From assembly GCA_022340425.1 (NCBI GenBank), contig JAJDNY010000135.1, positions 2,806-66,805 of the forward strand: a stretch of 64,000 nucleotides of DNA, written 5' to 3'. A program made the translations under genes and the position numbers. The notes below the pieces were generated by a model. The model saw nothing but the letters and a program-made list of their open reading frames with translations. It was not told the DNA's origin and did no database searches. Every line of letters starts with the position of its first letter. Within the stretch, counting starts at the first letter, position 1. This DNA is from Desulfobacteraceae bacterium. GTDB taxonomy: Bacteria > Desulfobacterota > Desulfobacteria > Desulfobacterales > JAABRJ01. This document shows positions 10,005 to 52,742 of the stretch, one piece after another.

Positions 10005-10044
10005 GGGGGGGTCTCCTTGTGGTGGCCGTCGCCGGCCGGGGGCC

Positions 10045-10728: not shown

Positions 10729-10799
10729 CCTCCAGCAAAATCTTGTCGGGACGGACGGGGTTCGTCCTCAACCCGGGATGACAGCGGACGGATTCCTGC

Positions 10800-10943: not shown

Positions 10944-11009
10944 GAGGCAACGGCGCCTCCTTTCCCGGCTTGGTGTTGATGGCGGGGTAAAATGCTTTTT
11001 ACCGCTTCG

Positions 11010-13267: not shown

Positions 13268-13290
13268 GGCTTCTCCTCGATGGGCCTGTT

Positions 13291-21781: not shown

Positions 21782-21817
21782 GGCGGATAATGGTTGCTAA
21801 CCAGATTGAGGCATCGG

Positions 21818-22351: not shown

Positions 22352-22413
22352 AACTCATCTCCCGCAAAAGATTCCTGCCCTCCACGGCCGATTCTGGCGG
22401 CCGCAGACGGGCC

Positions 22414-23337: not shown

Positions 23338-23392
23338 GGTGCCTCCTCGGGGGCGGGCTGCAGGCCGGTGCGGCTCGCTGGGGTTCGCCGAC

Positions 23393-24433: not shown

Positions 24434-24651
24434 CGTGTCTCACGTAGGTCGGAATCGCGGACAGCAACAGGCGCTCAACCCAAGGGGGTTTTGTCCGGGT
24501 AACGGCGTCCGCGCTCCTGCACAATTTGGGGTTGCAATGCGGCCGTCGACCGGTCCGGCCGAAGCCCGCCTACCGCAGGCGCTGCCGGCCGATGGCGCCG
24601 ATGCCTCAAGATAGGGCCTCGCACCCCGAAGCTCAAGGGCCAGGTCTGTTT

Positions 24652-30600: not shown

Positions 30601-31614
30601 AATCTCGGTGGCATCCCCCACGGGGGTGCCGGCGCCGTGGCACTCGATCAGGTCCACCGCATCCGGCGACCAGCCGGCGGTCGCGTAGGCCCCCTGCATG
30701 GCCCGCAGCTGGCCCTCGCTGGCAGGCGCCAGGAGGCTGCCGTCGATGTCGTTGGAAAGGCCGATGCCCCGGATCACGGCGTGAATCCGGTCGCCATGGG
30801 TCAGGGCGTCCGCCAGGCGCTTCAACACCAGGATGCCGGCGCCCTCTCCCACCACCAGACCGTCGGCGCTGCGGTCGAAGGGGGCGCAGCGGCCCGAGGG
30901 TGAAAGCGCCCGCAGCTGGCTGAAGCCCACCTGGGTGTAGAGACAGTCCGGGCGCGATACGCCCCCGGCCAGGATGGCGTCCGCGCGATGCGCCTGAAGG
31001 GCGTCGCAGGCCAGTTTGAGGGCGAAAAGCGACGAGGCGCAAGCCGCATCCAGGGTGTAGCTGCCGCCGCCGAGGTTGAGCGCCCGGGCCAGAAGGGCGG
31101 CCGGCAGGCCCGCCACCTGGCCGGCCAGGCAGGCATGGCGGTCGATGGCGGCCGGCGTCGACGGCTGTTTGAAAAGCCGGTTTTCCAAGGGACGGCCGAA
31201 TAGCTCCCAGCTGATCTGGGAGGCGGCCTCGCTGGGAAGGACGATGGCGGCCAGAATGGTGCCGATGCGCTCCCGGTCGAGAGGCGCGTGGCGGCATTGG
31301 GCAAAGGCATCGCGGCCGGCGGTGAGCACCAGGTGGTAGAGGGGGTCAAGGGCCGCCAGCAGGTCGGTATCCAGGTCCAGGCCGGCGGGGTCCAGCGGCA
31401 GGGGGTCCACCAGACAGGCGCGGCCGGTAAGGGCCCGGTCCGGCTGGGGCTTCTGGCTGACCATGACCTCCGGGGGCGCGGCCCAGCGCCCCGGCGGGAC
31501 CTCGCGGCAGGTGTCCGCCTTGCCGCGGACATTCCTCCAGAAGGTCTCCACGTCGGGCGCGCCGGGGAAAACGGCGGCGAACGCCACCACGGCGATTGGG
31601 GGGGGAGGTGTCAT
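24652..31614 (-). CDS. PfaC-like polyunsaturated-fatty-acid-synthase-type PKS (KS - CLF - AT - 2x [pseudo-DH + FabA-type DH])
   Basis: 2320 aa.
- KS: DAACASS, CHGAGTPVGD, KSMIGH.
- CLF: second KS-like domain lacking the Cys (VSAEAAAG).
- AT: GYSLGES.
- Pro/Ala-rich linker.
- Two FabA-type DH domains (HFVDDRVMPGTL and HFYQDPVCPGSLG).
I saw no ACP (no DSL-type motif), KR or ER region. Confidence 0.9.
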   Translation of the reverse strand: MTPPPPIAVVAFAAVFPGAPDVETFWRNVRGKADTCREVPPGRWAAPPEVMVSQKPQPDRALTGRACLVDPLPLDPAGLDLDTDLLAALDPLYHLVLTAGRDAFAQCRHAPLDRERIGTILAAIVLPSEAASQISWELFGRPLENRLFKQPSTPAAIDRHACLAGQVAGLPAALLARALNLGGGSYTLDAACASSLFALKLACDALQAHRADAILAGGVSRPDCLYTQVGFSQLRALSPSGRCAPFDRSADGLVVGEGAGILVLKRLADALTHGDRIHAVIRGIGLSNDIDGSLLAPASEGQLRAMQGAYATAGWSPDAVDLIECHGAGTPVGDATEIRSLASLWDGLTWQPQQCAIGSVKSMIGHLLTAAGAAGAIKTLLALQHRTLPPSLHFSVPPAGSPLLDGPFRVQTQPADWEPRAAGKPRRAAVSAFGFGGINAHLLLEEFTDPDPAVPPPAPSAPSVEAPARPAAAIIGMQTFLGPLEGLQAFQEAVFSGSPAIGPRPSQRWRGAETAAAGLLGETGARGAFLADLSVGVGEFHIAPNEIADLLPQQLLMLKAAAGAMLAAGFQGRPERPRMGAVIGVEFDFAATDFHLRWRLLQAAAAWNDRYRLGLDPRALAQWRAALADACGPPLTAVRTLGALGGIVASRIAREYRLGGPTFTVSAEAAAGMRALEIGVRALQRGELDAVLVGAVDITADVRNLTARHGIRALGTGAGVRPFERRAQGTLPGEGAVALVLKRLDQAVADGNRVYAAVAGIGAADGGSIATGLASSAAYRLSLERALGDGGTPAAAVSYLEAHGSGDPAEDRVECAALQSVFSQPAQGAPPASCAVGSLKPIVGHSGAAAGLAGVVKTALCLHHEMIPPLPGLNEPSDDRWHGGPFHFPASAQYWVRNRCEGPRRAVAAAMTSAGGCMHVLLEGVEAAPAATGHQKTHRQRPHPAGELPYGLFCVSASDRDGLTAGLERLERHLKQQGPAAAIASLARSWHRSAAPEGAAALGVAIIAGSRERLKHWIREARGAVREGAAVRLNGPEGVCFTPAPLGPGGQVAFVYPGSGNHFLGMGRAIGVRWPEVLRRMDAATAHLKSQMLPDAILPRRSAWGPGWEKAALAQLAADPLKPIFGQVVHGGLMTNLVRRFMPAPDAAIGYSLGESAALFALGAWPDRGQMLARMAATDLFSTQLAGPCRAARQAWGISADQPFTWTVAVVDRAADAVRPAIARHRHTRLLIVNTPEECVIGGDAQALQAVIAELGCNAFFLDGVVTVHSDAAQPVRQAYRELHLFPTTAPPGIRFYSCAAGRAYELSAASAADAILAQALHGFDFTATVEQAYADGLRIFVEMGPQASCSRMIGRILIDRPHLAVSASVRGEDEPLTVLKLLGHLWTHRLPMSLDFLYGSRGATPETAPPPVFARTVTVPLGGPPPRPTAPPAATAAPAPASAPPPHPAATAPGRFSDLLGPLDAAVEATAEAHRRFLDFADQSQQGFARAFDLQTRLLAELAGAEKPVAPTAATTPRPSAPPPAYSREMCMEFAVGSVARVLGPEFAEVDGYRVRVRLPDEPLMLVDRIVSVSGEKGSLGPGRVVTEHDVLPGAWYLDGDRAPVCIAVEAGQADLFLCSYLGIDLAVRGQRAYRLLDAKVRFHRGLPRPGDVIRYEIAIDRFVRQRETWMFFFHFEGWIGDAHLISMRDGCAGFFTESEVQNSGGIILTESDTRPAAGKRPADWSPLAPLAKEKYDDGQLEALRGGDLSACFGPAFDGLDLAPALRLPGGRMHLIDRVLELDPAGGRFGLGSIRAQADIHPDDWFLTCHFVDDRVMPGTLMYECCGHALRVLLQRLGWVTAKDGAAYEPVTGVEAVLKCRGPVTPATRQVVYEVALREIGYNPAPYAVADALMYADGRRIVAFQGLSLQLSGTTRTELESLWESRRRLASPANALPAAPTEDRPVLFSRDQLLAFCVGNPSEAFGEPYRVFDHERFIARLPGPPYCFMDRITAAEPPPWQLAPGGWIEAAYDIPPEAWYFRAERNGRMPFCVLLEIALQPCGWLAAYAGSALKSPHDLQFRNLGGNARLQREVSTQSGTLTMRARLTKVAKAGDIIIENFDFQVLTGGAMVYEGDTAFGFFTRSALAKQVGLRESPPSGAPDAADPAGGRLLADARPLTPDDPHSSPPAGLAMPARALRMIDRIDIFLPEGGPRGLGYVRGSKTVDPDEWFFKAHFYQDPVCPGSLGIESFLQLLKFAARRRWKELCDTHRFALAAPASHRWTYRGQIIPTSRQVMVEAFVTAVSEGPAPALQADGYLQVDGLYIYKMEGFRLQLRPR

Positions 31615-31790
31615 GGGGGGTACGAACTTCCTTATCTTTTTTCTGGGGCTTCGGACCAGCGCGGCGCGAATGGTATACCGAAGTCATCGGGGCTTGGCAA
31701 GGCTTGATGAACCACGGGTGCGCGCATCCCGCCGCCGCCGGCCCGGGTGCTGGTAAGGCGAAAAATCGCCTTCAGGGAGCCTGCGCGGTC

Positions 31791-33908: not shown

Positions 33909-36900
33909 TCAGGAGGCCTCTGCAGGCAGGCTGCGCAGCCGCTCCAGGGCCTTGTCGTATTCGTAGGCCGCGATACTCGCCGCCAGCTCGGCGGCCAGCT
34001 CGGCCGGCAGATAGGCGCGCGCGGCGGCGAAGCGCGGCGGGATGGTTTCGGGGTCCGCCAGTTGGAGCGCCTCGGCCAGCCCGTCCAATTTCGCCTGCCG
34101 TTCGGCCGGGTCGGCCGCCGGGCCTTCGCCGCCGGCCGCCGCCGGCGCCGGTGAGATGGTGGCGATTCCGGCCAACACCTCGGCCAGGTGCGTACCCACG
34201 GTGTCCGTGAGGGCCGAAAGGGTCACCGGGTCCGGCGTCTGGCCGGCCGCCAGGGTTTTCTCCAACTCGCGTGCGGCTGTGGAGAGCCGGGTTGCACCGA
34301 TATTGGCGGCGCTGCCCTTGATGCTGTGGGCCAGTTGGCGCAGGGCGTCGTGGTCGCCGCCCGCCCGCAGGTCCTCCAGGGCGGCGGCCGTTGCGGCATT
34401 GTGCTCGGCAAAGCCGATCAGGATCCGGCGGAAGGTGGCCGGGTCGATGCTGAGGGTCTCCAGGGTCTTGCGGACCTCGATCCCCGGCAGGCTGTCGGGC
34501 AGCGGGCCGGCTGAGGGCGGGGGCGCGGCGGCGCTCGCATCCGGCGCCGGGACGGGTTTCGGCAGCGGGCAGGCGAGCTGTGTGGCGGGCCGTTTGATGG
34601 TGCGCCAGAGGGTGTGAAAGAGGCGGTCCTGATTGATGGGTTTGGAGACGTAGCCGTCCATCCCGGCTGCCAGACATTTTTCCTCGTCGCCTTTCATGGC
34701 GTGGGCGGTCATGGCGATGATCGGGATCTGCCCCACGGCGGGGATCGCGCGGATCGCGCGGGTGGCTTCGAAGCCGTCCATTTCGGGCATCTGGATGTCC
34801 ATCAGAACGGCCTCGAAAGCGCCGGCCTGAACCGCATCGACCGCTTCGCGGCCGTTGGCGGCGGTTTCCACCTGGATGCCGGCGGATTCCAGAACCGCGG
34901 TTGCGATCTCGCGGTTGGTGGGGTTGTCCTCGGCCAGAAGGACCCGAAAGCCCCGCAGGCGCTCTTTGTAGATGGAGGCCCGGGTGGTGAAGCGGGTGCG
35001 CGTGGTTTCGCTTTTGGCGGCGGTTTTGCCGAAGGCGTCCATCACCGCGTTGAACAGCTCCGACTGGTAGATGGGCTTGGCCAGAAAACCGTTGATGCCC
35101 TCCCGCTGGGCCGCGTTGCGGACGCTCTGGTCCTCGAAGGCGGTCATCAGGATGATGACGGTATCGCGCTTGAGGTCGCGGCGGATGCGTCGGGCGGCGG
35201 CGATGCCATCCATCCCGGGCATCTTCCAGTCCATCAGGACCAGGTCGAAGGGTCCTTCAGCGCCCGGCTCAGCCCCGAGGCGCTCCAGGGCCTCCTCGGC
35301 CGAGTCCGCGGTTTGGACCGCAAACCCGAAGCTCTCCAGCATCTTCTGCATGATCACGAGGCTGTCGTTGCAGTCGTCCACCACCAGCACGTTGAGTCCC
35401 TGGATGTCGGCCGGCGGCACGAACTTCGGCGGTGGCGGGCCGGCGCAGCGTTCGAAGCCGGCGGTGAAATAAAACGTGCTGCCCTTGCCCAGCTCGCTTT
35501 CCACCCAGATGGTGCCGCCCATCATCTGCACCAGCTGCTTGCAGATCGCAAGTCCCAGGCCGGTGCCCTGGTATTTGCGGGTGGAGGAAGCGTCGGCCTG
35601 ACTGAAGGACTGAAACAGCAGCGGCAGGTACTCCGGTGCGATCCCGATGCCCGTGTCCTTGACGAAAAACTTCAGAAAAACCCGCTCTTCGGTGGTTTCC
35701 GCCGGAACCAGACCCACCAGGATCACGCCGCCTTTGTCGGTGAACTTGACGGAGTTGCTGACTAGGTTGGTGAGGATCTGCTGCAGGCGCAGGGGATCGC
35801 CCACCAGCGTCCTGGGAACACCGGGGTCGATATCCACCAAAAGTTCGATCCGGTTCTCGGCCACCTTGTTGTGGAAGACGTCCACCACGTTGTCCAGGAT
35901 CTCGTCCAGCATGAAGGGGCGGGCTTCCAGGGCCATTTTTTCGGCCTCGATCTTGGAAAAATCCAGGATGTCGTTGATGATCCCCAGCAGGGAATAGGCG
36001 GAGGTGTGGATGATTTCGAGGTAGTGGGCGGCCCGTTCGGGCAGTTTTTCGCTCAGGGCCAGCTCGGCGGCCGCAATCACGCCGTTCATGGGGGTACGGA
36101 TCTCGTGGCTCATATTGGCCAGAAACTCGCTCTTGGCGCGGGTGGCGGCCTCGGCCTGGTCCCGGGCCTGGATCAGGCGTTTCTCCACCAGGCGCCGCTC
36201 GCCGACTTCGGCCTCCAGGCGGAAGTGCGAGGTCTTCAGCCGCCGGTTGAGCTTCATAATGGTCACGGTGAAGCCCGCCAGGATCAGAAAGCCGGCGGCG
36301 ATCAACTCCAGCCAGTACCAGTATTTTTTGAGCACGTCGGCAAAAGTGATCTTGCCCAGGTCCCGGTAAGGCCCGATCTTAAGCTCCCGCAGGAGATCGT
36401 GGACGTCCTGGTAGTTCAGCGGGATGGTCCAGCCGGCGTAGCGCCCGGCAACGGCCGCCGGGTTGTCGAGCGTGATCTGGAGCAGGGCGATGGCAACGGC
36501 CACGCCCAGTTCATCGGAGGTTCGGCCCATTTTGGCGATCGGCCACTCCGGGTACAGGCGGGTGGAGGCGACAAAGGGCAGGTTCTCGTGGGTGACCCCG
36601 TCCACGGGAATGATAAAAAAGTCATCGAGATCGATCTTGTTTTCGGTCTGCATCCGCTCCAGGGTGTCGGTGCGCACCGTGCCGGCGTCGCTCAATCCGT
36701 CGCGCACCGCCAGCACAACGGCGTCGTGGGTGCCGGCAAAGTGGAAGTTCTTCAAATCCCGCCGGGGGTCGATGCCGCGGGCGGCCAACTCGCGCCAGGC
36801 CGCGTGCCAGCCCCCCAGGGAGTGCTCCTCCACCGCCATGAAGGACTTGCCCTTGAGGTCTTCCAGGCGTCGGATGTCGCTGCGCTCCTGGCGGGTGAAA

Positions 36901-37283
36901 ATCACGCCACCGTATCGGGTGAAGCTTCTGCCGGCATGAAGATTCTTGAGGGTGGCGATCCGCATGGCGCCGTATTCGATTTCCAGATCGACGTAAACCG
37001 AGGGGTTGCAGATGATAAAATTAAGCGGCTCCAGACGGAAGGGATCGAAAATCTGATCGTACTCCAGCGGGACGATGACAAACCGTTTGCCGGGTATTTG
37101 GCTGGAGAGGTAGTCCGCAGTGGGGGACCATTTTTCCAAGCAGCGATCGACGCCGCGTTTGGCCAGCACGCCGATCAGGACCTGCTGCGGGGTCTCTTCG
37201 CCGCGGGCGCCTGGAGCCGAAACAAATGTCGCTGCCAGAAGGAGAAAACCGATGAGGAGGGTTGTGCAACGCCGTCTGTTCAT
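33909..37283 (-). CDS. Hybrid sensor histidine kinase (periplasmic PhnD-like binding domain, TM, HisKA, HATPase_c, 2x REC, Hpt)
   Basis: Signal peptide plus a periplasmic PBP-like domain. H-box FLANMSHEIRTPMNG. Two receiver domains (VLVVDDC..., VLLAEDNPTN...). C-terminal Hpt (LAHSIKGSAANIGA). Confidence 0.85.
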   Translation of the reverse strand: MNRRRCTTLLIGFLLLAATFVSAPGARGEETPQQVLIGVLAKRGVDRCLEKWSPTADYLSSQIPGKRFVIVPLEYDQIFDPFRLEPLNFIICNPSVYVDLEIEYGAMRIATLKNLHAGRSFTRYGGVIFTRQERSDIRRLEDLKGKSFMAVEEHSLGGWHAAWRELAARGIDPRRDLKNFHFAGTHDAVVLAVRDGLSDAGTVRTDTLERMQTENKIDLDDFFIIPVDGVTHENLPFVASTRLYPEWPIAKMGRTSDELGVAVAIALLQITLDNPAAVAGRYAGWTIPLNYQDVHDLLRELKIGPYRDLGKITFADVLKKYWYWLELIAAGFLILAGFTVTIMKLNRRLKTSHFRLEAEVGERRLVEKRLIQARDQAEAATRAKSEFLANMSHEIRTPMNGVIAAAELALSEKLPERAAHYLEIIHTSAYSLLGIINDILDFSKIEAEKMALEARPFMLDEILDNVVDVFHNKVAENRIELLVDIDPGVPRTLVGDPLRLQQILTNLVSNSVKFTDKGGVILVGLVPAETTEERVFLKFFVKDTGIGIAPEYLPLLFQSFSQADASSTRKYQGTGLGLAICKQLVQMMGGTIWVESELGKGSTFYFTAGFERCAGPPPPKFVPPADIQGLNVLVVDDCNDSLVIMQKMLESFGFAVQTADSAEEALERLGAEPGAEGPFDLVLMDWKMPGMDGIAAARRIRRDLKRDTVIILMTAFEDQSVRNAAQREGINGFLAKPIYQSELFNAVMDAFGKTAAKSETTRTRFTTRASIYKERLRGFRVLLAEDNPTNREIATAVLESAGIQVETAANGREAVDAVQAGAFEAVLMDIQMPEMDGFEATRAIRAIPAVGQIPIIAMTAHAMKGDEEKCLAAGMDGYVSKPINQDRLFHTLWRTIKRPATQLACPLPKPVPAPDASAAAPPPSAGPLPDSLPGIEVRKTLETLSIDPATFRRILIGFAEHNAATAAALEDLRAGGDHDALRQLAHSIKGSAANIGATRLSTAARELEKTLAAGQTPDPVTLSALTDTVGTHLAEVLAGIATISPAPAAAGGEGPAADPAERQAKLDGLAEALQLADPETIPPRFAAARAYLPAELAAELAASIAAYEYDKALERLRSLPAEAS

Positions 37284-38389
37284 TCTTGCCGTTTTCCTTC
37301 CAGGCGCTTTTCTTCCAACTGGCCGGCGCTGCGGCGCTCGGATGGTTCAATCCTGAAGCCTTCCTTCTGAAGAAGCTCCAGGCAGGCGTCGACCGCATCG
37401 GGCGTGTAGCGCACGCCGCGGTGCGTGGTGATTTCCTCCAGGGCCACGTCCAGGCCGCGGGCCGGTCGGTAGGGGCGGAAGGAACTGCCGGCTTCTACGA
37501 CGTCGGAGACGGTCAGGATGGTGGCCTCGCGCAGAATCTGGTCGCCTTTCAAGCCCCGGGGGTAGCCCGAGCCGTCCAGCCGTTCGTGATGTTGGTGGAC
37601 GATTTCCGCCAGGGGCCAGGGGGCCGGAATGTTTTGGAGGATCTCGAAGCCCACCTGGGGATGCAGCTTGATCAACTCCATCTCCACGTCCAGCAGCCGG
37701 CCGGGGCGGTTGAGGATCGAGGTCGGAATGCGGATTTTACCGATATCGTGCAGAATCCCGGCAAAGCGGATGGCCTGGATCTGTTCCTGGGAGAGCGCCA
37801 GCTTTTCGGCGATGGCGCAGGCCAGGTGCGCCACCCGCTGCTGGTGGCCGGCGGTATATGGGTCGCGCATTTCAAGGGCGAAGGCCATGGTTTTGACCGT
37901 GGCGTTGAGCATTTCCTGAAGTTCGGCGGTTTTTTCGTTGACCTTTTTTTCCAGCACGACGTTCTGGTTGCTGAGATCCCGGCGCATCTGCCGGAGGGTC
38001 AGGTGGGTGCGCACCCGGGCCTTGACCTCCGCGGCGTGAAACGGTTTGGTGACATAGTCGACCCCGCCGACTTCGAAGCCGTGGGTCTTGTGACCCGGTT
38101 CGTCCAGGGCGGTGATGAAGATCACGGGGATTTCGCTGGTTTCCGGGTCCTGCTGCAAGCGGCCGCAGACTTCGTAGCCGTTCATCTCCGGCATCATGAT
38201 ATCCAGCAGGATCAGGTCCGGGTGGTGGCGTGCGGCGTACTCCAGGGCCTTGGGTCCGTTTTTGGCGATCCCCAGACGGTAGTCCTCCTTGAGGGTGTTC
38301 ACCAGCAGGTCGATATTGGTGGCGTTGTCGTCAACGATCAGCACCAGGGAATCACGGTTCTGCAAGATCTTCTCCTTCGCTGGTTTCAA
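37280..38389 (-). CDS. Response regulator with HD-GYP output domain (c-di-GMP phosphodiesterase type)
   Basis: REC (LIVDDNATN...DLILLDIMMPEMNG) plus HD-GYP (HDIGKIRIP ... HHERLDGSGYPRGL). Start is uncertain: a TTG at 38365, 6 nt after AAGGAG, is an alternative. The stop overlaps the next gene's ATG. Confidence 0.9.
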   Translation of the reverse strand: MKPAKEKILQNRDSLVLIVDDNATNIDLLVNTLKEDYRLGIAKNGPKALEYAARHHPDLILLDIMMPEMNGYEVCGRLQQDPETSEIPVIFITALDEPGHKTHGFEVGGVDYVTKPFHAAEVKARVRTHLTLRQMRRDLSNQNVVLEKKVNEKTAELQEMLNATVKTMAFALEMRDPYTAGHQQRVAHLACAIAEKLALSQEQIQAIRFAGILHDIGKIRIPTSILNRPGRLLDVEMELIKLHPQVGFEILQNIPAPWPLAEIVHQHHERLDGSGYPRGLKGDQILREATILTVSDVVEAGSSFRPYRPARGLDVALEEITTHRGVRYTPDAVDACLELLQKEGFRIEPSERRSAGQLEEKRLEGKRQE

Positions 38390-41300
38390 GCGCGGTCAGG
38401 TCCGCCGCGGCGGCCCGCAGGACCACCAGGGCGCGGTCGTATTCATAGGCAGTGATGCAGTCGTCCAGTTCATGCCAGGTGTCGGGGTCCAGATGTTCGT
38501 GCAGGGCGTTGAGGGCGTGCCGGATGGCCTGTGGGTCGGCGTTTTCGAGGCCTTCCTGGATCGCGGCGAGCAACGGTCGCAGCACGGCCGGATCGCAGGT
38601 TCGGCCGGATACCTCGGCCGTCTCCGCTTCCGTGGGATGCGCCAGGCTCTCCAGGGACCGGTGCACCTGGTCGAAGGCCGCCTGGAGGCGTTTGAAGCGC
38701 GCACCGAAATCTGCGGCGTCGCTTGCCGGGTCGGCCGCCGCGGTTTCCAGTTCGCGGGCGGCTGCCGCCAATTCAGCGGCGCCGATGGCCGCCGCGCTGC
38801 CCCGCAGGGCATGGGCGTTCTGGCGCAGGGCCGGCCGGTCTTCAGCGTCCAGGGCGGCTTCGATGCGGGTGGCGTTTTCAGCACTGTCGCGCGCAAAACG
38901 CTGCAGGATGCCGCGGAAAGTTGCGGCATCCAGGCCCAGTGCACTTCGGGCCGCGCCGATCTGCAGACCGGGCAACCAGTCCGGCAGGGCGCCCGCCCCC
39001 GGGCGTTGGGTCCCTGGGAGGCGCCCTGAAGGGCCGCTGCGGCCTTTCAGGAGCTTTCCCAGAACGGTGTAGAGGGTGTCGCGGCTGACCGGTTTGGCGA
39101 TGTAGGCGTTCATCCCGGCCGCAAGACAGCGCTCCTCGTCGCCCTTGAGGGCATGGGCGGTCATGGCCACGATGGGCAATCCGGCGTGGCGCCGGTCCTG
39201 GCGGATGCGGGAGGTGGCCTCCAGGCCGTCCATGACCGGCATCTGAACGTCCATCAGGACGGCGTCGAAGCGCCTGCGGCTGACGGCGGCAACGGCCTGG
39301 CGGCCGTCCGGGGCGATTTCCACGATGGCCCCGGCCTCCTCCAGGACCGCGCGCGCGATTTCCTGGCTGGTGGGGGTGTCTTCGGCCACCAGGATGTGCG
39401 CACCCTCCAGCAGGCTTTCGTCCGCTGCGGGCGGGCTTGGGGCGGCAAGGCGATCGCCGCTGTCGGGTTCCCCGCAGAGGGTCAGGATGGCGTTGAGCAG
39501 CAGGGTGGGGTAGACCGGCTTGGCGACGAAGCCGTTGATGCCGGCGGCCATTGCAGCGCTGCGGTCGTTGTTGCGGTCATAGGCCGCCAGCAGCAGCAGC
39601 GGCACCGGGGGGGCGATTTCGGTGCGGATCCGGCGGGCGGTGGCAAGACCGTCCATCCCCGGCATTTTCTGATCCAGCAGGACAAGGTCGAAGGGTTCGC
39701 CCGCTGCTGCCGCCGTTTGGAGCCGTTTTACGGCGTCCGGCCCGCAAGCGGCGGTCTCCACCTGCAGGCCCCAGGCGCTGGCCGTGGTTTTCAGTGCCGC
39801 CAGGACTGCCGGGCAGTCATCCACCAGCAGCAGGCGCAGGCCGGCGAGCGCCCGCGGCAGCCCGGCGGAGGCCACCGCAAGGCGCTGTTTGAAACGGGCC
39901 GTGAAGTGAAAGACGCTGCCCGCCCCCGGGGTGCTCTCGACCCCGATGGTGCCCCCCATGATTTTAACCAACTGCCGGCAGATGCTGAGTCCCAGTCCGG
40001 TGCCGCCGTATTTGCGGGTGATCGAGGCGTCCGCCTGGGTGAAGGGGTTGAACAGGGCGCGGCGGTATTCGGGGGCGATGCCCACCCCGGTGTCCCGAAC
40101 ATGAAACTGCAGCACATCGGGCTCGCCTTCAGTCGAACCGACGTCCAGTTCGACCACCCCGCCTTTCTCGGTGAACTTAATGGCGTTGTCCAGAAGGTTC
40201 TTGAGGACCTGCTGCAGGCGCAGGGCGTCGCCGACCAGCTCGGTGGGGGTCCCGGGCTGGATGGCCACGACCAGTTCCAGCTCTTTTTCGGCCACCTTGC
40301 TCAGAAACATGCCGGTGACGCCATCCAGGGCGTTTTCGAGGTTGAACGGGCCGGCCTCCAGGTCCAGCTTGCCGGCCTCGATCTTGGAGAAGTCCAGGAT
40401 GTCGTTGATGATGCCCAGCAGCGAAATCGCCGAACTGTGGATGATCTTCAGGAAATGGGCGGTCTTGGGGGAAAGCGCGTCGTTCAGGGCCAGTTCCGCC
40501 GCCGCGATGACGCCGTTCATGGGGGTGCGGATCTCATGGCTCATGTTGGCCAGAAAGTCGCTCTTGGCGCGGGTGGCGGCCTCCGCGGTTTCCTTTGCGG
40601 TCAGTAGTTCGCGGTTGGCGGCCTGCAGTTCGGCGGTGCGGTCGGCCACTCGCTGCTCCATGTCGCGATAAGCCTCCTGCAGGGCGGCCTCGGAGCGCTT
40701 GCGCAGGGAGATGTCCTGCAGAAATCCCTCGATCAGCAGAAGGCCGCCGTCGGCGGCGCGCACCGCCCGCGCCCGGATGGCGGTCCAGACGGGGCTGCCG
40801 TCCCGGCGCCTGAGCTGGCACTCGAAGTCGGTGACGACGCCTTCGCTGGTCAGGCGCGCCATCAGGGTCTCATGGTCGGCGGGGGTGACGTAGACCGCTT
40901 TGCCCAGCCTTTCCAGGGCGTCGATCAGCTCGGCGGGCGAGCCGTAGCCGAGAATTGTCGCCATCGCGGGGCTGGCGCTGATCATCTGTCCATCGGGGGT
41001 CACCTGGAATATGCCTTCGGGGGCGTTTTCGAATATGCTGCGGTATTTTGCCTCGCTTTCCGCCAGGGCCGCCTCGGTTTTCTCCTGCTCGAGGATACGC
41101 AGCTCAAGCGCCTTGCTGTACTCCTGAAGCTCGGCGGCGTGGTTGGTCAGCAGGTTTTCCTTTTCACGATAATAATCAAGCTTGGCGTAAAGCTCCTCGG
41201 GGGAAATGCGCAGGCTGGCGAGAACTTCGGTGTAGACTTCGCTGAGTTCCACGGACTCCTGGGGCGTGAAGACCGCCGAGCTGGTGAGGGCCTTGTGGGC

Positions 41301-43145
41301 GGCGGGGGCGCCGATGGCGCCTGCCAGAGATTTTTCCACCTCGCTGTGGAGCTTGATGAGATCGATGATGGTGATCTGCGCTTGCCCTTCCAGGCGGCAG
41401 GCCGCCAGGCAGCGGGCGAGAATCGATTGGGCTTCGGTTTCCTCCATGTAGCGCTGGAGGACCTTTTCGATTTCCAGGCGTTTGGCCGCCAGGTCGATGC
41501 TGGCTGTGTGGCGCTCCCGGTCAGGGGGCAGGCCCGCGTCCGGGCCTTCGCCGGTAAAGGCCAGCGCCAGCCGCTTTTCGCTGGGGCCCTGCTCGCGCCA
41601 GAGCGACACCAGCACGTAGGCCCCGAGATTGAAAAGGATGGACCAGAAAAGCGTGTGGGAGAGCGCCGGCAGTCCTCGCAGACCGAAGAGACTCTCGGGG
41701 TTGAGGGCCGCAAGCCCCCATGGCCCGTTTTCCAGGATGCCGGGCGAAAACCAGCCGACTCGGATCAGGGCCGGCAGCAGCAGAGTGTAGAGCCAGGTCG
41801 CGAACCCCGCGCTCAGCCCGGCCAGTGCGCCCCATTTGTTGGCCTGGCGCCAGAACATGCCGCCCACGATGGCCGGGGCGAACTGGAAGACCGCCGCAAA
41901 TGAGATCATGCCGATATTGGCCAGCATGAAGGTTTGGCCGATCAAACGCTCGAAGCCGTGGCTCAGGATCAGCACCAGCCCTACGGCCGTCCACTTGCAG
42001 CGCAGCAGGTGGCGCCGCAAAAAACCCAGCCAGGGCACCCAGCGGACCAGCGGCAGCAGCAGGTGGTTGGTGAGCATCGTGGAGAGGGTGACCGAACTGA
42101 TCATGATCATGCCGGTGGCGGCCGAAAAACCGCCGATAAAGACCAGCATCACCATCCAGGGTTTGCCGTGATCGCGTGGCAGATCCAGAACGAAGGTGTC
42201 GGCCCCCATGGCCGGCAGGCCCTGCAGCAGGCCCGCGGCGGCAATCGGCAGAACAAAGAGGTTGATCAGCAGCATGTAGACCGGAAAGATCCACATCGCC
42301 GAGGAGATAAAATCCGGGTTTGGGTTTTCCACCACCGCCACGTGAAATTGGCGGGGCAGAAACAGGCTGGCGGACATGGCCAGCACGATGTAGGTGGCCC
42401 ACAACAGGTAGGGCGAGGCGGCGCGGCCGCTGAGGGCGAACAGGCTGTGATGGGGGCTCTCCGCCAGCCGTTGGAAAAGGTCACCGAAGCCGTCGTAGAG
42501 AAAATAGGTCACGAAAACCCCCGCCACAAGGAGGCTTGCCAGCTTGACGCCGCATTCCACCGCCAGGGCCATCACCATCCCGTCGTGGCGCTCGGTGGGG
42601 TCCAGCCGCCGAACCCCGAAAATGATGGTAAAGAGGATCATCAGCGCCACCACGATGGGGCCCACGTGGCCGCCGATCCAGGCGGAAAATCCCTGGCCCG
42701 GGGAGGTGATCAGGGCAAAGGTGCTGATGATCGCCTTGAGCTGCAGCGAAACGTAGGGGATGGTCGCAAACAGGGCCAGCAGGGTGGCCAGTGCGGCCAG
42801 GGTTTCGGATTTGTCGTAGCGGGCCGAAATGAAGTCCGCGATGCTGGTGATGTGGTGATGGGATTTGATCAGCGCCATCCGCCGCAGCACCTTCCACCAG
42901 AGGATGATGCCCAGGGTGGGCCCCAGGTAGACTGTGAGAAAGAGCAGCCCCGAGGAGGCCGCGATGCCGACGCTGCCATAGTAGGTCCAGGCGGTGCAGT
43001 AGACCGCCAGCGAGAGGGCGTAGACCCAGGGGTTGTTGGCGGGACTTCTTCCGGCTCTGGCGCAGCGCTCGGCCCACAGGGCCACCAGGAAAAGGGCCCC
43101 GGCGTAGAGCAGAAATACGAGCATGGCGACCAGCGGATCGAACAT
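38352..43145 (-). CDS. Hybrid sensor kinase with N-terminal sodium:solute symporter (SSF) domain (CbrA-like), PAS, HisKA, HATPase_c, 2x REC, Hpt
   Basis: About 520 aa of SSF-type polytopic membrane domain, then PAS (YRSIFENAPEGIFQ), H-box FLANMSHEIRTPMNG, two REC domains, and Hpt (NAHALRGSAAAIGA). Start moved to the ATG at 43145 (MFDPLVAMLVFLLYAG...); the 117 residues upstream in the track ORF are low-complexity. Confidence 0.85.
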   Translation of the reverse strand: MFDPLVAMLVFLLYAGALFLVALWAERCARAGRSPANNPWVYALSLAVYCTAWTYYGSVGIAASSGLLFLTVYLGPTLGIILWWKVLRRMALIKSHHHITSIADFISARYDKSETLAALATLLALFATIPYVSLQLKAIISTFALITSPGQGFSAWIGGHVGPIVVALMILFTIIFGVRRLDPTERHDGMVMALAVECGVKLASLLVAGVFVTYFLYDGFGDLFQRLAESPHHSLFALSGRAASPYLLWATYIVLAMSASLFLPRQFHVAVVENPNPDFISSAMWIFPVYMLLINLFVLPIAAAGLLQGLPAMGADTFVLDLPRDHGKPWMVMLVFIGGFSAATGMIMISSVTLSTMLTNHLLLPLVRWVPWLGFLRRHLLRCKWTAVGLVLILSHGFERLIGQTFMLANIGMISFAAVFQFAPAIVGGMFWRQANKWGALAGLSAGFATWLYTLLLPALIRVGWFSPGILENGPWGLAALNPESLFGLRGLPALSHTLFWSILFNLGAYVLVSLWREQGPSEKRLALAFTGEGPDAGLPPDRERHTASIDLAAKRLEIEKVLQRYMEETEAQSILARCLAACRLEGQAQITIIDLIKLHSEVEKSLAGAIGAPAAHKALTSSAVFTPQESVELSEVYTEVLASLRISPEELYAKLDYYREKENLLTNHAAELQEYSKALELRILEQEKTEAALAESEAKYRSIFENAPEGIFQVTPDGQMISASPAMATILGYGSPAELIDALERLGKAVYVTPADHETLMARLTSEGVVTDFECQLRRRDGSPVWTAIRARAVRAADGGLLLIEGFLQDISLRKRSEAALQEAYRDMEQRVADRTAELQAANRELLTAKETAEAATRAKSDFLANMSHEIRTPMNGVIAAAELALNDALSPKTAHFLKIIHSSAISLLGIINDILDFSKIEAGKLDLEAGPFNLENALDGVTGMFLSKVAEKELELVVAIQPGTPTELVGDALRLQQVLKNLLDNAIKFTEKGGVVELDVGSTEGEPDVLQFHVRDTGVGIAPEYRRALFNPFTQADASITRKYGGTGLGLSICRQLVKIMGGTIGVESTPGAGSVFHFTARFKQRLAVASAGLPRALAGLRLLLVDDCPAVLAALKTTASAWGLQVETAACGPDAVKRLQTAAAAGEPFDLVLLDQKMPGMDGLATARRIRTEIAPPVPLLLLAAYDRNNDRSAAMAAGINGFVAKPVYPTLLLNAILTLCGEPDSGDRLAAPSPPAADESLLEGAHILVAEDTPTSQEIARAVLEEAGAIVEIAPDGRQAVAAVSRRRFDAVLMDVQMPVMDGLEATSRIRQDRRHAGLPIVAMTAHALKGDEERCLAAGMNAYIAKPVSRDTLYTVLGKLLKGRSGPSGRLPGTQRPGAGALPDWLPGLQIGAARSALGLDAATFRGILQRFARDSAENATRIEAALDAEDRPALRQNAHALRGSAAAIGAAELAAAARELETAAADPASDAADFGARFKRLQAAFDQVHRSLESLAHPTEAETAEVSGRTCDPAVLRPLLAAIQEGLENADPQAIRHALNALHEHLDPDTWHELDDCITAYEYDRALVVLRAAAADLTALETSEGEDLAEP

Positions 43146-43147
43146 GG

Positions 43148-43384
43148 CTATTGCCTCGGCACCGGTGGGGGGTCGCGGTCGGCGGGCGACCGCCGGCAGT
43201 GGCGGGCGATCAGCGCCAAGACCACCACCAGGGCGGACCATGTCAGGTAGAGGTAGAGAAAACCGACCGGCGGCCGGGTCTTCTCGAGGATGGTCAGCAG
43301 GGGCCAGTTGAAGAGCAGGAAAAAAAGGCAGAAAAGAAAAATATGGAACTCCGTCTTGCCCAGCAGGTCCTTGAGGCGCGCCAT
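43148..43384 (-). CDS. Small two-TM membrane protein translationally coupled to the SSF-kinase
   Basis: MARLKDLLGKTEFHIFLFCLFFLLFNWPLL...FLYLYLTWSALVVVLALIA (78 aa). GGAGG RBS. Its TAG stop lies 2 nt before the kinase ATG. The arrangement is reminiscent of the small DUF-type membrane proteins that precede SSF transporters. Confidence 0.5.
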   Translation of the reverse strand: MARLKDLLGKTEFHIFLFCLFFLLFNWPLLTILEKTRPPVGFLYLYLTWSALVVVLALIARHCRRSPADRDPPPVPRQ

Positions 43385-43464
43385 AAAACCTCCTCCCGGC
43401 GGCGTCGGCCACCGTCGGTGCCGGATGGGTGCGACGGCGGTGAATTCCGGCATCCGCTCGAAAA

Positions 43465-43493
43465 GAATATGAAAAACGGCTCAGCCTGTCAAG
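43465..43493 (-). promoter_or_regulatory. Sigma-70-type promoter candidate for the signalling operon
   Basis: Minus strand: TTGACA (43488-43493), 17-nt spacer, TATTCT (43465-43470), about 80 nt upstream of the small membrane protein ATG. Confidence 0.4.
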
Positions 43494-43499
43494 CACAAC

Positions 43500-43517
43500 C
43501 CCCGGCGGCCGCCGGGG
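43500..43517 (-). terminator. Perfect 18-bp GC palindrome CCCCGGCGGCCGCCGGGG immediately after the rpe stop (hairpin, no U-tract)
   Basis: Read directly. It starts 1 nt after the rpe stop codon. Confidence 0.35.
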
Positions 43518-43518
43518 T

Positions 43519-44175
43519 CTACGGGCCCATCAGGTGCCGCAGCTCGGCGATGGTGGCCGCGTAGTCCGGACTGCCGAAGATCGCCGAGCCGGCGACGAAC
43601 ACATCGGCGCCGGCGGCGGCAACCGCGGCGATGGTGCCGGCGTTGACGCCGCCGTCCACCTGAATGAGGGTCGAAAGCCCGCGGGACTGGATCATCCTCC
43701 GCAGCCGGGTGATTTTTTCCAGGCTGGATTGGATGAACTGCTGCCCGCCGAAGCCGGGGTTGACGCTCATCACCAGGACGAAGTCGACCGCCTCCAGGAC
43801 CCATTCCAACGCCGTCAGGGGCGTGGCCGGGTTGAGGACCACGCCGGCCTTGACGCCCGCCTCGCGGATGAGCTGGATGCTGCGGTGGAGGTGGACGCAG
43901 GCCTCGACCTGCACGGCGATCAAGTCTGCCCCGGCGCGGGCGAAGTCGGTGATGTAGCGCTCCGGGGCGTCGATCATCAGGTGGACGTCCAGGGGCAGCT
44001 GGGTCACCCGCCGCACCGCCGCCACCACCAGGGGACCCATGGTGATGTTGGGCACGAAATGGCCGTCCATGACGTCGATGTGGATCCAGTCGGCGCCGGC
44101 GGCTTCAACAGCACGAATCTCCTCGCCCAACCGGCTGAAATCGGCGGATAGGATCGAGGGGGCGATCAGTTTCAT
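43519..44175 (-). CDS. rpe: Ribulose-phosphate 3-epimerase
   Basis: 218 aa. Canonical [13 protein letters not shown]...[12 protein letters not shown]...[10 protein letters not shown]...DGG motifs. Confidence 0.95.
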
Positions 44176-49217: not shown

Positions 49218-49304
49218 GCCGAAGTGGCGGAACTGGTAGACGCGCTAGGTTCAGGGTCTAGTCGACGTACGTCGGTGGGAGTTCGAGTCTCCCCTTCGGC
49301 ACCA
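49218..49304 (+). tRNA. tRNA-Leu (anticodon CAG), class II with long variable arm, CCA encoded
   Basis: Hand-folded cloverleaf:
- Acceptor stem GCCGAAG/CTTCGGC.
- D stem GCG/CGC.
- Anticodon stem CTAGG/TCTAG with loop TTCAGGG.
- Variable arm CGAC-GTAC-GTCG.
- T stem GGGAG/CTCCC with loop TTCGAGT.
- Discriminator A followed by CCA.
Very similar to E. coli tRNA-Leu(CAG). Confidence 0.9.
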
Positions 49305-49315
49305 AACAAACCCAA

Positions 49316-49350
49316 CGGGTCAGGTGACCAGCCTGGCCCGTTTTTGTTTT
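49316..49350 (+). terminator. Rho-independent terminator after tRNA-Leu
   Basis: CGGGTCAGG / CCTGGCCCG stem (one G-U pair) followed by TTTTTGTTTT. Confidence 0.7.
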
Positions 49351-49729
49351 TGGCCGAGCGCTGTATCCCCGCTTAAGCGCGTACCCAAACATAGGTCCTT
49401 CCGGGCGAAATGGAAGCCCCAATGGTTGGGAATCCGCTATTTGGATTTGAAAAGCCGCCCAGCGGTCCGATTTTGCTTGGCAAGCCAGCCTGTGAGTCGT
49501 AAAATAGTTTTAGTAGATTTCCTCATTGTGGTTTTGGCAGCCGGCTCGGTAAGCCTTTTTCTTCGCAAACAAAGCGTTTTCCAGGTTTTTAAGCGCGGCC
49601 AATCAAGGCCCCTGAAGGCGCGGGCTCATCATCTCCGGCGAGTCAAGCTCTTGGAGCACCGCCGGTTGGGGGCCAGGGGGCCAAACAATATGCTGGCAAA
49701 GTTTTGACCAAACCAAAGGAGGCCACAAC

Positions 49730-50251
49730 ATGAAGCAGCGGGATGGCGGCTGGAGCCCCTATCTGGCAGGGGCATTGAGTGGTGTGGTGGGCGTTTTGTC
49801 GGTCTGGTTCGCCGGGCAATTTTTGGGTGCATCCACCTCATTTGTGCGCACTGCCGGTATGATCGAGCAGCTTTTCGGACCGGAGCGGGTGGCTCAGATG
49901 GCCTATTTCGTCAAGACCGTGCCCAAGATCGACTGGCAGTGGATGTTCATGGTGGGTATTTTGCTCGGGTCGGCCATCGCGGCGGTCACCTCGGGCGCAT
50001 TCAAGCTGCAGGCCGTTCCCGATATGTGGGCTGCGCGCTTTGGCCGCGGCAGCACCGCCCGGCGTGCTCTCGTGGCCTTTGTGGGCGGCGTGGTGGCGAT
50101 GTTCGGGGCGCGCCTGGCCGATGGGTGACCGAGCGGGCACGGGTTGAGCGGTTCGCTTCAACTGGCTGTCAGTGGTTTTATCGCCTTGGTCTGCTTTTTT
50201 ATCGGCGGGATGGTCGTGGCCCGCATCGTCTATGGTGGAGGTGACCGATGA
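49730..50251 (+). CDS. YeeE/YedE-family sulfur/selenium transporter component (half 1), probable selenoprotein with in-frame UGA at 50126-50128
   Basis: The track ORF stops at ...GARLADG-TGA. The same frame continues as PSGHGLSGSLQLAVSGFIALVCFFIGGMVVARIVYGGGDR, ending in a TGA that overlaps the next ATG (ATGA). The RLADG-U-PSGHGLSG context matches the family motif RLAGGC(T/A)SGHG(I/L)SG, with Sec at the conserved Cys. Confidence 0.6.
50143..50162 (+). promoter_or_regulatory. Candidate bacterial SECIS hairpin
   Basis: GUUGAGCG-GUU-CGCU(U)CAAC is an 8-bp stem with one bulged U and a G-first apical loop. The loop begins 25 nt after the U of the UGA, within the spacing range typical of bacterial SECIS elements. 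Confidence 0.4.
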
Positions 50252-50775
50252 AGATGCTTGTCTACGGGCTGGTGACCGGTCTGCTCTTCGGTTTTTTGCT
50301 CCAGAAGGGGCGTGTCCTGCGCTATGATAAACAACTCGGCGCCCTGCGTCTGCTGGACATGACCATCGTCAAATTCATGCTCTCCAGTGTGATGGTCGGG
50401 ATGGTGGGGGTTTATCTTCTCCATGACCTGGGTCTTGCCAAGCTCTCCATCAAGGCCACGGTCTTGGGGCCCGTCATCATCGGCGGCCTTGTGTTCGGTA
50501 TCGGCTGGGGCCTTTTAGGGTATTGCCCGGGAACCTCCATGGGCGCCCTGGGCGAAGGCCGCTGGGATGCGGTCTGGGGGATTTTGGGGATGATCGTGGG
50601 GGCCGGCCTGTTTGCCGAAGCCTACCCCGCGTTGAAGCAAACGGTTTACACCTGGGGGGATTTTGGGCGCATCACCATGCCCGAGGTTCTCGGCATCAAC
50701 CACTGGGTCATCATTCCGCTTTTCATCGCAGGCGCCTTGCTGCTCTTCCGGTGGCTGGAAAAAAAGGGACTGTAG
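50248..50775 (+). CDS. YeeE/YedE-family transporter component (half 2)
   Basis: 175-aa multi-TM protein with a GLLGYCPGTSMGALGEG motif. Its start overlaps the read-through stop of the upstream gene. Confidence 0.8.
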   Translation: MKMLVYGLVTGLLFGFLLQKGRVLRYDKQLGALRLLDMTIVKFMLSSVMVGMVGVYLLHDLGLAKLSIKATVLGPVIIGGLVFGIGWGLLGYCPGTSMGALGEGRWDAVWGILGMIVGAGLFAEAYPALKQTVYTWGDFGRITMPEVLGINHWVIIPLFIAGALLLFRWLEKKGL

Positions 50776-50909
50776 ACCTTTTTTGCTGGGAGATTTAAGC
50801 CGGGGCGCAACCCGGGCGCCCATTGGTTCGAAACAGGCCGCAGCGGCCATCCCTGGCTTTTCGGGGTCACCTGCAGCAGGTGCACGCGCCGTTCGGCCCG
50901 GGTGTGAGC

Positions 50910-52742
50910 ATGGATTTCAAAGACACCAATGATATGTCATCCCCGCAGCGAACCCGGCCGGAAATTCCGCCGGATGCAGGCGCCGACTGCGCTGCGTCCG
51001 TTTTTGCGGCCTCCCATCCGCTTGCCGAGCGCATCAAAGAACTCAATTGCCTTTACGGCATCTCAAATCTGCTGGAAAATCACGGGGTATCCCTTTCCTG
51101 GATCATGCAGCGGGCCGTTGAACTAATACCGGCGGCCTGGCAGTATCCCCAAAACGCCTGTGCGCGAATCCTTCTGGACGGCCAGGAATACACCTCCCGA
51201 AATTTCAAGACCACCCCTTGGCGTCAAAGTACCACGATCATACTCAACGACCAGCCCGTCGGGGGAGTGGATGTTTTCTACCTTGAGGCGCCTCCTGAAA
51301 ACCCTGCGGGCCCGTTTCTGGAGGAGGAGCAAAGGCTGCTTAGGGCCATCGGGGAACGCTTGAGTAAAGTACTCTGGCTGAAGCGCTCAGAAGAAGCCCT
51401 GAAAGAAAGCGAAGCCCGCTACAGGGTGCTCACCGAGCAGGTCGCCGAAGGGGTCGCGCTGGTTCAGGATGGGCGCTTCCGCTATGTCAACCCGGCGTTT
51501 TGCGGGATGTTCAACGTCCCGCTGGCGGAGGCCCTGATCGGTGGGCTTGTGAGCGCCCCGGCAGTCGGTGCAGCCGATGACATTGCCTGCCTGTACGCCG
51601 GCTCTGCGGCAGATGACCCCACGACCCGGGTGGAGAACGTGCACCGCTTGGCCCGGGATGGCGCCACTTGCTGGATTCAGGTCTGCCACAGTCCCATCAC
51701 CCTGAAAGGCCTGCCGGCACTGCTCTCCACATTCAAGGACATCACCGAGATCAAGGAGCAGCAGGTGGCCGCAGAGAAGATGGCCGACCTGTTGGACCGC
51801 GAAAACCGCGTGTTGCGCGCCTCGTTGAGCGATCGCTACCGGCTTGGAGAAATCCTGGGCCGCTCGGCGGCCATGCAAACGGTCTACGAGCTGATTCTGA
51901 AAGCGGCCGCAACCGATGCCAGTGTCGCAATTTTCGGCGAATCCGGGACCGGCAAAGAGCTTGTGGCCCGTGCGATCCACGACCACAGCCACCGCAAAAA
52001 GGCGCGCTTTGTGGCGGTCAACTGTGGGGCCATCCAGGAGACCCTTTTCGAACGCGAATTTTTCGGCCATCGCAAGGGGGCCTTTTCAAGCGCCCACGCC
52101 GATTCCCCGGGCTACCTGGATATGGCCGCGGGCGGAACCCTGTTTCTCGATGAGGTCGGGGATCTGACCCCCGGTATGCAAGCCAAGCTCCTGCGGGCGA
52201 TCGAGGGCGGCGGCTATCGGCCGGTAGGCGGAACGGAGGCCATTTTGTCCGATTTCCGCATCATATCGGCCTCAAATGCCCCACTGGCCGACAGGGTTGT
52301 CAAAGGCGAGATGCGCGATGATTTTTTCTACCGGATCCAGGTGATCCAGATCCAGCTGCCCCCCTTGCGCGAGCGGCGCCAGGACATCCCCCTGCTGGTG
52401 GAGCATTTTTTGCGCAAGATGCGGCCGCCCGCTGATTCCATCAGGATCGCCGGACCCATCATGGACGCCTTGATGGACTACGACTGGCCCGGCAATGTCC
52501 GCGAGCTGCGCAACGTCCTGCAGCGTTACGCCACCCTCGGCCAGCTTGAGTTTCTCTCCCCGGGCCAACAGCCTTCAACGGCCCCCATCACAGCCGCCCT
52601 TGATCTGCGCGAAGCCGTCCAGCAGCTGGAAAAGTCCTTGATTTTACGAGCTCTTCGAGAAGCAGGCGGGAACCGCACCAAAGCCGCCAGATTACTGGGC
52701 ATATCCCGCCGCGCCCTTTTCCGCAAAATAACCGCCCCATGA
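50910..52742 (+). CDS. Sigma-54-dependent transcriptional activator (N-terminal GAF-like + PAS sensory domains, AAA+, Fis-type HTH)
   Basis: [15 protein letters not shown] Walker [16 protein letters not shown] (GAFTGA-loop variant), [10 protein letters not shown], and a C-terminal HTH ([15 protein letters not shown]). Start taken at the ATG at 50910. Confidence 0.9.

Follow-up and report, generated by a model that had tools for sequence, protein, structure and literature searches.

Is an in-frame UGA codon that appears to cut a transporter gene short a stop signal, or does it encode selenocysteine (Sec)? This question is raised by a locus in a 64-kb stretch of DNA from a Desulfobacteraceae bacterium (contig JAJDNY010000135.1; the whole stretch is hereafter called the window), in which the open reading frame (ORF) 49730-50128 (+) closes at TGA 50126-50128 in the context RLADG-*-PSGHGLSG. 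An earlier sequence-only reading had proposed probable Sec read-through at a conserved cysteine (Cys) of a YeeE/YedE transporter, and comparison with relatives now supports this proposal: the UGA occupies a Cys column, the reading frame downstream of it is conserved, and it is followed by a covarying hairpin of the Sec insertion sequence (SECIS) type. On this evidence, UGA codon 133 of the gene (gene 1, 49730-50251) very probably encodes Sec. Together with the overlapping gene 2 (50248-50775), gene 1 is predicted to form the two halves of a split YeeE/YedE membrane carrier of the PmpA/PmpB type.

The UGA Codon and the Reading Frame beyond It

Gene 1 (49730..50251, +) comprises 173 codons plus a stop when UGA codon 133 is read as Sec, and is preceded by a Shine-Dalgarno sequence, GGAGG (49718..49722, +), located 7 nucleotides (nt) 5' of its ATG. 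Beyond the proposed Sec codon (50126..50128, +; residue 133) the frame stays open for 40 further codons, LQLAVSGFIALVCFFIGGMVVARIV, up to TGA 50249-50251, and this true stop forms an ATGA overlap with the gene 2 start codon (50248..50251, +). The TGA-ended ORF, the 40-codon open frame and the overlap are all located where the sequence-only reading had placed them. With Cys put at the UGA, gene 1 matched PF04143 (Sulf_transp) with 77.6 bits over profile positions 174-310 (gathering threshold 27 bits), and the residues around the UGA, D-G-U-P-S-G-H-G, satisfy the motif G-U-x-S-G within a PF04143 protein. The motif given earlier for the family, RLAGGC(T/A)SGHG(I/L)SG, was correct regarding the aligned Cys but not in its exact wording, the actual motif here being RLADG-U-PSGHGLSG.

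The window sequence alone does not prove recoding; the proof is comparative. A homologue search over 5.8 billion proteins returned two kinds of relative. The first were full-length homologues of 171-178 amino acids (aa), 65-78% identical, and all 12 that were aligned have Cys at the UGA column (RLADG-C-PSGHGLSG). The second consisted of nine other clusters, 93-98% identical, which had been called as 132-aa proteins and represent the same UGA in near relatives. Alignment with PF04143 homologues, one of the checks suggested earlier, thus placed the UGA on a Cys that is invariant in full-length homologues and corresponds to Cys293 of the YeeE protein of Spirochaeta thermophila (StYeeE).

A scan of the Genome Taxonomy Database (GTDB), with one genome per species, yielded 80 loci from species-level relatives. 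Orthologues with either TGA or TGC/TGT at this codon, which the sequence-only reading had recommended looking for, were both found: the codon at the Sec site is TGA in 65 of the 80 species-representative genomes and TGC or TGT in the remaining 15. Carriers of TGA were detected in Desulfobacterales, Syntrophobacteraceae, Desulfuromonas/Geobacter, Desulfobulbaceae, Desulfovibrionaceae (Desulfovibrio relatives), Desulfomonilaceae, Desulfobaccales and Nitrospirota, and the same TGA recurs in many independent metagenome assemblies. Isolate genomes are among the carriers, for example those of Desulfatitalea alkaliphila M08but and Hydrosulfovibrio ferrireducens CB1MN. When the switches between Sec and Cys were placed on a tree inferred by neighbour joining from the remaining gene sequence, approximately 10 were counted, always at the codon of Sec133 and never at the second cysteine of the transporter.

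The downstream frame was checked in 88 sequences (87 related loci and the window). It runs 36-45 codons beyond the Sec/Cys codon in every one of them, and orthologues ending at the UGA, which the sequence-only reading had named as evidence that would speak against it, were not found. Gene 1 terminates where gene 2 begins in all cases in which gene 2 was found, and the ATGA overlap was scored in 63 of these 85, start codons being assigned by a heuristic. Codon and hairpin statistics were calculated from 67 distinct TGA-carrying sequences, with the 15 Cys-codon orthologues used for contrast. In codons +1 to +5 past the TGA, the first and second positions are invariant and the third positions show up to four states in the TGA carriers, which shows that these codons are translated and under purifying selection; no start codon occurs between the UGA and the conserved downstream codons.

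These observations bear directly on the possibility that the TGA is a genuine stop, reflecting either a pseudogene or sequencing error or a real 132-aa protein followed by an untranslated remnant. The 132-aa product called by public pipelines agrees with such a view, as does the chance of 40 open codons at 63.6% GC, which is about one in three as calculated from base composition, and the hairpin described below is not significant in the single sequence. However, 65 species-level genomes and the independent metagenome assemblies share the TGA, the 36-45 downstream codons are conserved as protein with synonymous variation from the very next codon, gene 1 always ends at the start of gene 2, and termination at the TGA would remove the last transmembrane helix of the family together with its GH motif. 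Because the codons past the TGA are under purifying selection, a genuine stop, a pseudogene or a sequencing error is untenable as an explanation and can hardly be credited with any probability.

A Covarying SECIS Hairpin Downstream of the UGA

A hairpin with a bulged U and a loop beginning with G had been noticed earlier at 50143-50162. It was found at 50142..50163 (+), where 50142-50150 pairs with 50154-50163 around an apical GUU loop (50151-50153), giving a stem of 9 bp, from which a single U bulges out at 50157 or 50158, and a loop 22 nt past the UGA. When the U of the UGA is numbered as position 1, the hairpin occupies positions 17-38 (window 50142-50163) and reads GGUUGAGCG-GUU-CGCU(U)CAACU. 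All published constraints on bacterial SECIS (bSECIS) elements, taken from section 5 of PMC13188914, agree with this structure (3-nt loop, 9-bp stem with a 1-nt bulge, 22-nt spacing, and a minimum free energy of -7.9 kcal/mol). The loop G at position 26 is invariant among the 67 carriers and is followed at position 27 by U (63 sequences) or G (4 sequences), which fits the G[G|U] pattern. The features shared with the bSECISearch model and the E. coli fdhF type of element are an in-coding hairpin 3' of the UGA, a small loop of G followed by U or G, a bulged U, and a spacing within 16-37 nt.

Strong support for this hairpin is provided by covariation among the TGA carriers. Overall, 99.0% of the hairpin cells are paired in the 67 sequences, compared with 23-53% when the 3' partners are slid by 1-3 columns. 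Pair 19-36 is U-A in 36 and C-G in 31 sequences and is broken in none; pair 18-37 is G-C in 61, A-U in 4 and G-U in 1, with one mismatch; and pair 21-33 is G-C in 38, G-U in 25 and C-G in 4. Both columns of pair 19-36 are synonymous at the protein level (Leu TTG/CTG at its first base and Gln CAA/CAG at its third), and by parsimony the pair has flipped jointly at least 8 times among TGA carriers with no intermediates, although the tree is crude and this count is therefore approximate.

Contrast with the Cys-codon orthologues pointed in the same direction. Third-position entropy within the hairpin (positions 18, 21, 24, 27 and 30) is 0-0.38 bits in TGA carriers versus 0.7-1.97 bits in the Cys forms, whereas flanking third positions are similarly variable in TGA carriers and in the 15 Cys-codon orthologues; pairing in the latter is 69.6%. 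The freezing of these third positions in TGA carriers only implies that the constraint acts on the RNA, and solely in genes with UGA at this codon. Three orthologues with TGC (L065, L037 and L080) are nested in TGA clades and retain most of the SECIS hairpin, which fits recent conversions from Sec to Cys that have left a fossil SECIS behind. As judged from these patterns of covariation and conservation, the predicted hairpin is a SECIS that is selectively maintained, and the structure proposed by the sequence-only reading has gained, in addition to agreement with the bSECIS constraints, the support of covariation.

Protein Family, Partner Gene and Structural Mapping

Gene 1 encodes the C-terminal-half (PmpA-like) subunit of a YeeE/YedE protein, and gene 2 (50248..50775, +; 175 aa) the N-terminal-half (PmpB-like) subunit. 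Gene 2 matched PF04143 with 48.2 bits (profile 19-153) and PF20398 (DUF6691) with 30.3 bits (cut-off 27). It has its own Shine-Dalgarno sequence, GGAGG (50237..50241, +), inside the last codons of gene 1, and its Cys93 codon (50524-50526) lies in a GYCPG motif. The pattern G[YF]CPG was detected in gene 2 in 72 of 85 sequences, most of the misses being due to the start-codon heuristic choosing another frame.

Both subunits could be aligned with the structure of StYeeE (also named TsuA; PDB 6LEO). Gene 1 residues 65-168 align with 6LEO residues 236-328 (E 1.6e-7), placing residue 133 on Cys293, and gene 2 residues 4-130 match 6LEO residues 2-126, which puts Cys93 on Cys91 and Leu at the position of Cys22. 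In StYeeE, Cys293 lies in a periplasmic indentation beside the bound thiosulfate and is the "first cysteine" of the C293-C91-C22 line; the mutants C293A and C91A fail complementation, and C22A complements (PMC7449682; PMC11073785). The TsuA/YeeE proteins of S. thermophila and E. coli (PDB 6LEO, 6LEP, 8J4C) therefore provide homologous fold halves, in which Cys293, the cysteine of thiosulfate site I, corresponds to Sec133 and Cys91 to Cys93 of gene 2. Unlike these proteins, which are single polypeptides of 330-350 aa, the carrier described here is divided between two genes of about 175 aa with the C-terminal half first, its third cysteine (Cys22) is replaced by Leu, and there is no nearby YeeD/TsuB gene. 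The combination of C22, C91 and C293 in one polypeptide of about 330 aa is absent here, as the genes are split, Sec is proposed at C293, and Leu is found at C22.

A closer likeness in layout is offered by PmpA/PmpB of Serratia sp. ATCC 39006, which are encoded by two half-size genes, the C-terminal half carrying the Cys293 equivalent and the N-terminal half the Cys91 equivalent, and for which a heterodimer has been proposed (PMC11582611). The same layout was found here, with adjacent genes for a C-terminal half (Cys293 equivalent) and an N-terminal half (Cys91 equivalent). The likeness is based on the published description of the layout, and differences exist: PmpA and PmpB are about 130 aa long with four transmembrane helices, compared with 173 and 175 aa here, and PmpA carries Cys at the position where gene 1 carries UGA/Sec. 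By analogy with these systems, the two products would form a heterodimer with a corresponding membrane topology. Judging from family membership, the carrier probably transports a sulfur or selenium oxyanion or a sulfane species, such as thiosulfate. An AlphaFold2 monomer of a Cys homologue (P0002), built from a 38-sequence alignment, reached a mean predicted local distance difference test score (pLDDT) of 61.6 and a predicted template modelling score (pTM) of 0.35 and was not used; a Foldseek search of this model against PDB gave no match at E <= 0.001. The low confidence probably reflects a half-transporter folded without its partner.

The arrangement of the two genes could also mean that the UGA is mainly regulatory, with selenium supply tuning the amount of full-length subunit and of the coupled gene 2 product, and with Sec chemistry being secondary. 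The ATGA coupling is conserved, it is well established that Sec insertion in bacteria is inefficient and selenium-dependent, and the related YedE has been tied to selenium metabolism by gene neighbourhood (PMC5322559), although no description of YedE as a Sec-containing protein was found in the literature examined. Against this, gene 2 has its own strong GGAGG site, Sec is located exactly at the Cys that is essential and contacts the substrate, and not at some random position, and the approximately 10 switches between Sec and Cys have always affected this one codon. A mainly regulatory role is thus considered highly unlikely.

Weighing the Selenocysteine Assignment

Several results weigh against the interpretation of this gene pair as a Sec-containing YeeE/YedE carrier and should be considered together. 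Pfam scans of approximately 30 ORFs detected none of selA, selB and selD in the 64-kb window, and no tRNA-Sec is present in it either, the sole tRNA being Leu-CAG at 49218-49304. No Rfam match to SECIS or any relevant family was obtained for the whole window (at gathering thresholds) or for 50050-50300 (at permissive E-values), and in this respect the hairpin differs from known bacterial SECIS elements in being recognised by no Rfam model. Its sequence, being superimposed on conserved codons for G-L-S-G-S-L-Q-L, is peculiar to this gene family. The region after the UGA, when folded as a single sequence, is no more stable than shuffled sequences (z -0.3 to -1.4), so the single-sequence fold is uninformative by itself. 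In addition, no experimental report of selenium incorporation was found for any member of the family in the literature searched.

Support from neighbouring genes and from curated protein models was similarly lacking. No TusA/YeeD, DsrE or rhodanese partner was found among the neighbours in 71-73 related loci; in the window, no yeeD/TusA-like partner lies near the gene pair, whose neighbours are the tRNA-Leu gene, ribF and a sigma-54 activator gene. The NCBIfam models for TsuA (NF052577/NF041049) gave 49.9 and 46.5 bits (cut-off 400) and 28 and 34.3 bits (cut-off 645), and those for YedE/FdhT (NF033796/TIGR04112) gave 25.8 and 34.9 bits (cut-off 350) and 27.7 bits (cut-off 200). Assignment of the gene pair as an orthologue of TsuA or YedE/FdhT was therefore rejected (26-50 bits compared with cut-offs of 200-645). 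The link to YedE and selenium that had been drawn earlier stands at the level of a shared superfamily and a shared selenium theme (PMC5322559), but not at the level of orthology, for which the scores are 26-35 bits compared with 200-350.

With translation through the UGA supported by comparison, the residue inserted still needs to be considered. The UGA could be read as a standard amino acid, either by near-cognate decoding as Trp or Cys or through a reassigned code; the Sec machinery was not found within the window, and sequence alone does not identify the inserted residue. Nevertheless, the true stop of gene 1, 40 codons beyond the Sec site, is UGA as well, and other genes also end in TGA, which implies that the genetic code is standard and that the recoding is site-specific. 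Moreover, Cys is the sole alternative at this column, a classic Sec/Cys pattern; a hairpin with the G-U loop of the SelB type is maintained at SECIS distance only in TGA carriers; and the host lineages are rich in selenoproteins, the former Deltaproteobacteria being recognised as a selenoprotein-rich lineage (PMC5029168). Decoding as a standard amino acid is accordingly very improbable, and Sec is retained as the preferred assignment. The genome would be expected to encode SelB and the remaining Sec machinery, by analogy with other Sec-decoding bacteria.

Relation to Known Selenoproteins and Current Annotation

YeeE/YedE proteins have already been described as predicted selenoproteins, and the present finding is not a new discovery in this sense. 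A YeeE/YedE (thiosulfate transporter) selenoprotein is catalogued with PF04143, the motif GUxSG and the representative WP_012471001.1 (PMC13188914; PMC9312934), and a "YeeE/YedE family" with 5 sequences from 5 organisms is listed in Supplementary Table S3 of a 2016 census (PMC5029168). The main text of the 2008 Global Ocean Sampling (GOS) paper cited in review does not include a YeeE/YedE family; the 2016 supplement does. Gene 1 shares with the catalogued family the Pfam family, the Sec motif and an occurrence in the former Deltaproteobacteria, and is likened to WP_012471001.1 by motif and family. In contrast, the catalogues contain no SECIS analysis, no structural mapping and five instances, whereas 65 of the 80 closest species-level relatives examined here have UGA. 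In the literature searched, no paper was found that analyses the SECIS of this family, maps its Sec onto a structure or reports experiments. What is added here is the breadth across species, the covariation of the SECIS, the structural mapping and the split PmpA/PmpB-like layout, that is, breadth and detail rather than kind.

A practical consequence concerns genome annotation. Public pipelines (NCBI, ENA, JGI and Logan) call gene 1 as a 132-aa product, and the 40-codon tail is unannotated in all of them; truncated calls include P0011, P0028, P0036, P0054, P0057, P0058, P0061, P0062, P0075 and P0114, and one JGI name for the truncated gene is 'HdeD (DUF308 family)'. The truncation of gene 1 at 132 aa by gene callers implies that a widespread transporter subunit of sulfate- and metal-reducing bacteria is systematically mis-annotated.

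Genomic Context and Other Features of the Window

The nearest ORFs on either side of the gene pair are not conserved in the 71-73 related loci and so offer no guide to function. On the upstream side, 8 of 73 loci have a peroxiredoxin (AhpC/TSA) gene next to the pair, and on the downstream side 5 of 71 have one for a C_GCAxxG_C_C protein; Sec-containing members are known in both of these families. In five loci, from Desulfosarcina and Desulfuromonas-type genomes, a gene of the aeRF1-like release-factor family (PF18845 and relatives, E 1e-39 to 1e-46) is found immediately 5' of the UGA gene on the same strand (L016:1669-2883, L017:1791-2945, L021:1763-2947, L022:148-1332 and L035:1786-2934, all +). 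This neighbour is not found in the window, and its occurrence beside a recoded stop is curious.

Directly 3' of the gene pair and on the same strand, a PAS / sigma-54-activator / HTH_8 regulator is encoded at 50823-52742 (+), a position conserved only in the closest relatives (L085 and L086). Because this activator adjoins the gene pair, a sigma-54 promoter was sought, but no match was found near 49500-49730, and matches in the window as a whole are fewer than expected by chance. Upstream, the tRNA-Leu(CAG) gene beginning at 49218 (+) is followed by a strong terminator-like hairpin (49314-49342) with a T run, and a sigma-70-like promoter at 49477-49505, recognised by consensus match only, would imply a 5' leader of approximately 220 nt for the transporter operon.

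Elsewhere in the window, an Hmc-like membrane redox cluster typical of sulfate reducers was found at 8613-14949 (-). According to Pfam scans, it comprises a multihaem class-III cytochrome c of 552 aa (13291-14949, -), a Fer4_11 protein (12182-13357, -), NrfD (11010-12206, -), a NarI-like protein (10045-10767, -) and a protein with Fer4 and CCG domains (8613-10067, -). A lipid or polyketide-type cluster at 20063-31683 (-) contains an AMP-binding enzyme, an alpha/beta hydrolase, KAS III and a megasynthase; the latter (2343 aa) has two ketosynthase and four FabA domains and resembles PfaC of polyunsaturated fatty acid synthases. The window also encodes two hybrid histidine kinases of very large size, at 33909-37346 (-) and 38352-43529 (-), with 1145 and 1725 codons from stop to stop; both have receiver and Hpt domains, and one has a sensor domain resembling phosphonate-binding proteins. 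No other selenoprotein gene was detected in the window by the Pfam scans of approximately 30 ORFs. A same-frame ORF pair at 21797-23392 (-) was considered as a second selenoprotein gene and rejected, as neither piece has a Pfam match and the alpha/beta hydrolase is encoded by an overlapping ORF in another frame.

Proposed Mechanism and Implications

If known bacterial Sec decoding is taken as a guide, SelB carrying Sec-tRNA(Sec) would bind the hairpin at 50142-50163 with the UGA positioned in the ribosomal A site. Sec would then be inserted, and translation of the 40 further codons would add the final transmembrane helix before reaching the true stop, which overlaps the start of gene 2. By reference to the StYeeE structure, the inserted Sec would replace the "first cysteine" (Cys293 of TsuA/YeeE) at the outer mouth of the pore. 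The first cysteine of TsuA is located in a re-entrant loop at the periplasmic entrance, where it contacts the sulfur anion before handing it to the second cysteine; in the carrier described here, the selenolate would make the first substrate contact, followed by handover to Cys93 of the gene 2 partner. The more nucleophilic selenolate would probably make capture or relay more efficient.

Natural replacement of Cys by Sec is known almost exclusively from reactive, nucleophilic sites. Together with the approximately 10 Sec/Cys switches at a single codon, this preference gives a hint that the first cysteine performs chemistry and does not only provide hydrogen bonding. A tentative and rather doubtful extension of this idea is that the first cysteine acts as a reactive nucleophile that forms a transient covalent Se-S (or S-S) bond with sulfane or thiosulfate sulfur, so that a covalent chalcogen relay would operate across the membrane, whereas the published structural model of YeeE proposes guidance by hydrogen bonds. 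Since Sec would be located at the thiosulfate-contacting residue of the family's only solved structure, natural Sec/Cys pairs offer a ready-made test of whether this cysteine has a chemical role or is only a hydrogen-bond donor. If the covalent relay were true, the Sec form would represent the common, high-affinity version of the carrier in anaerobic sulfur-cycling bacteria, and would be among very few selenoproteins with Sec inside a transport pathway.

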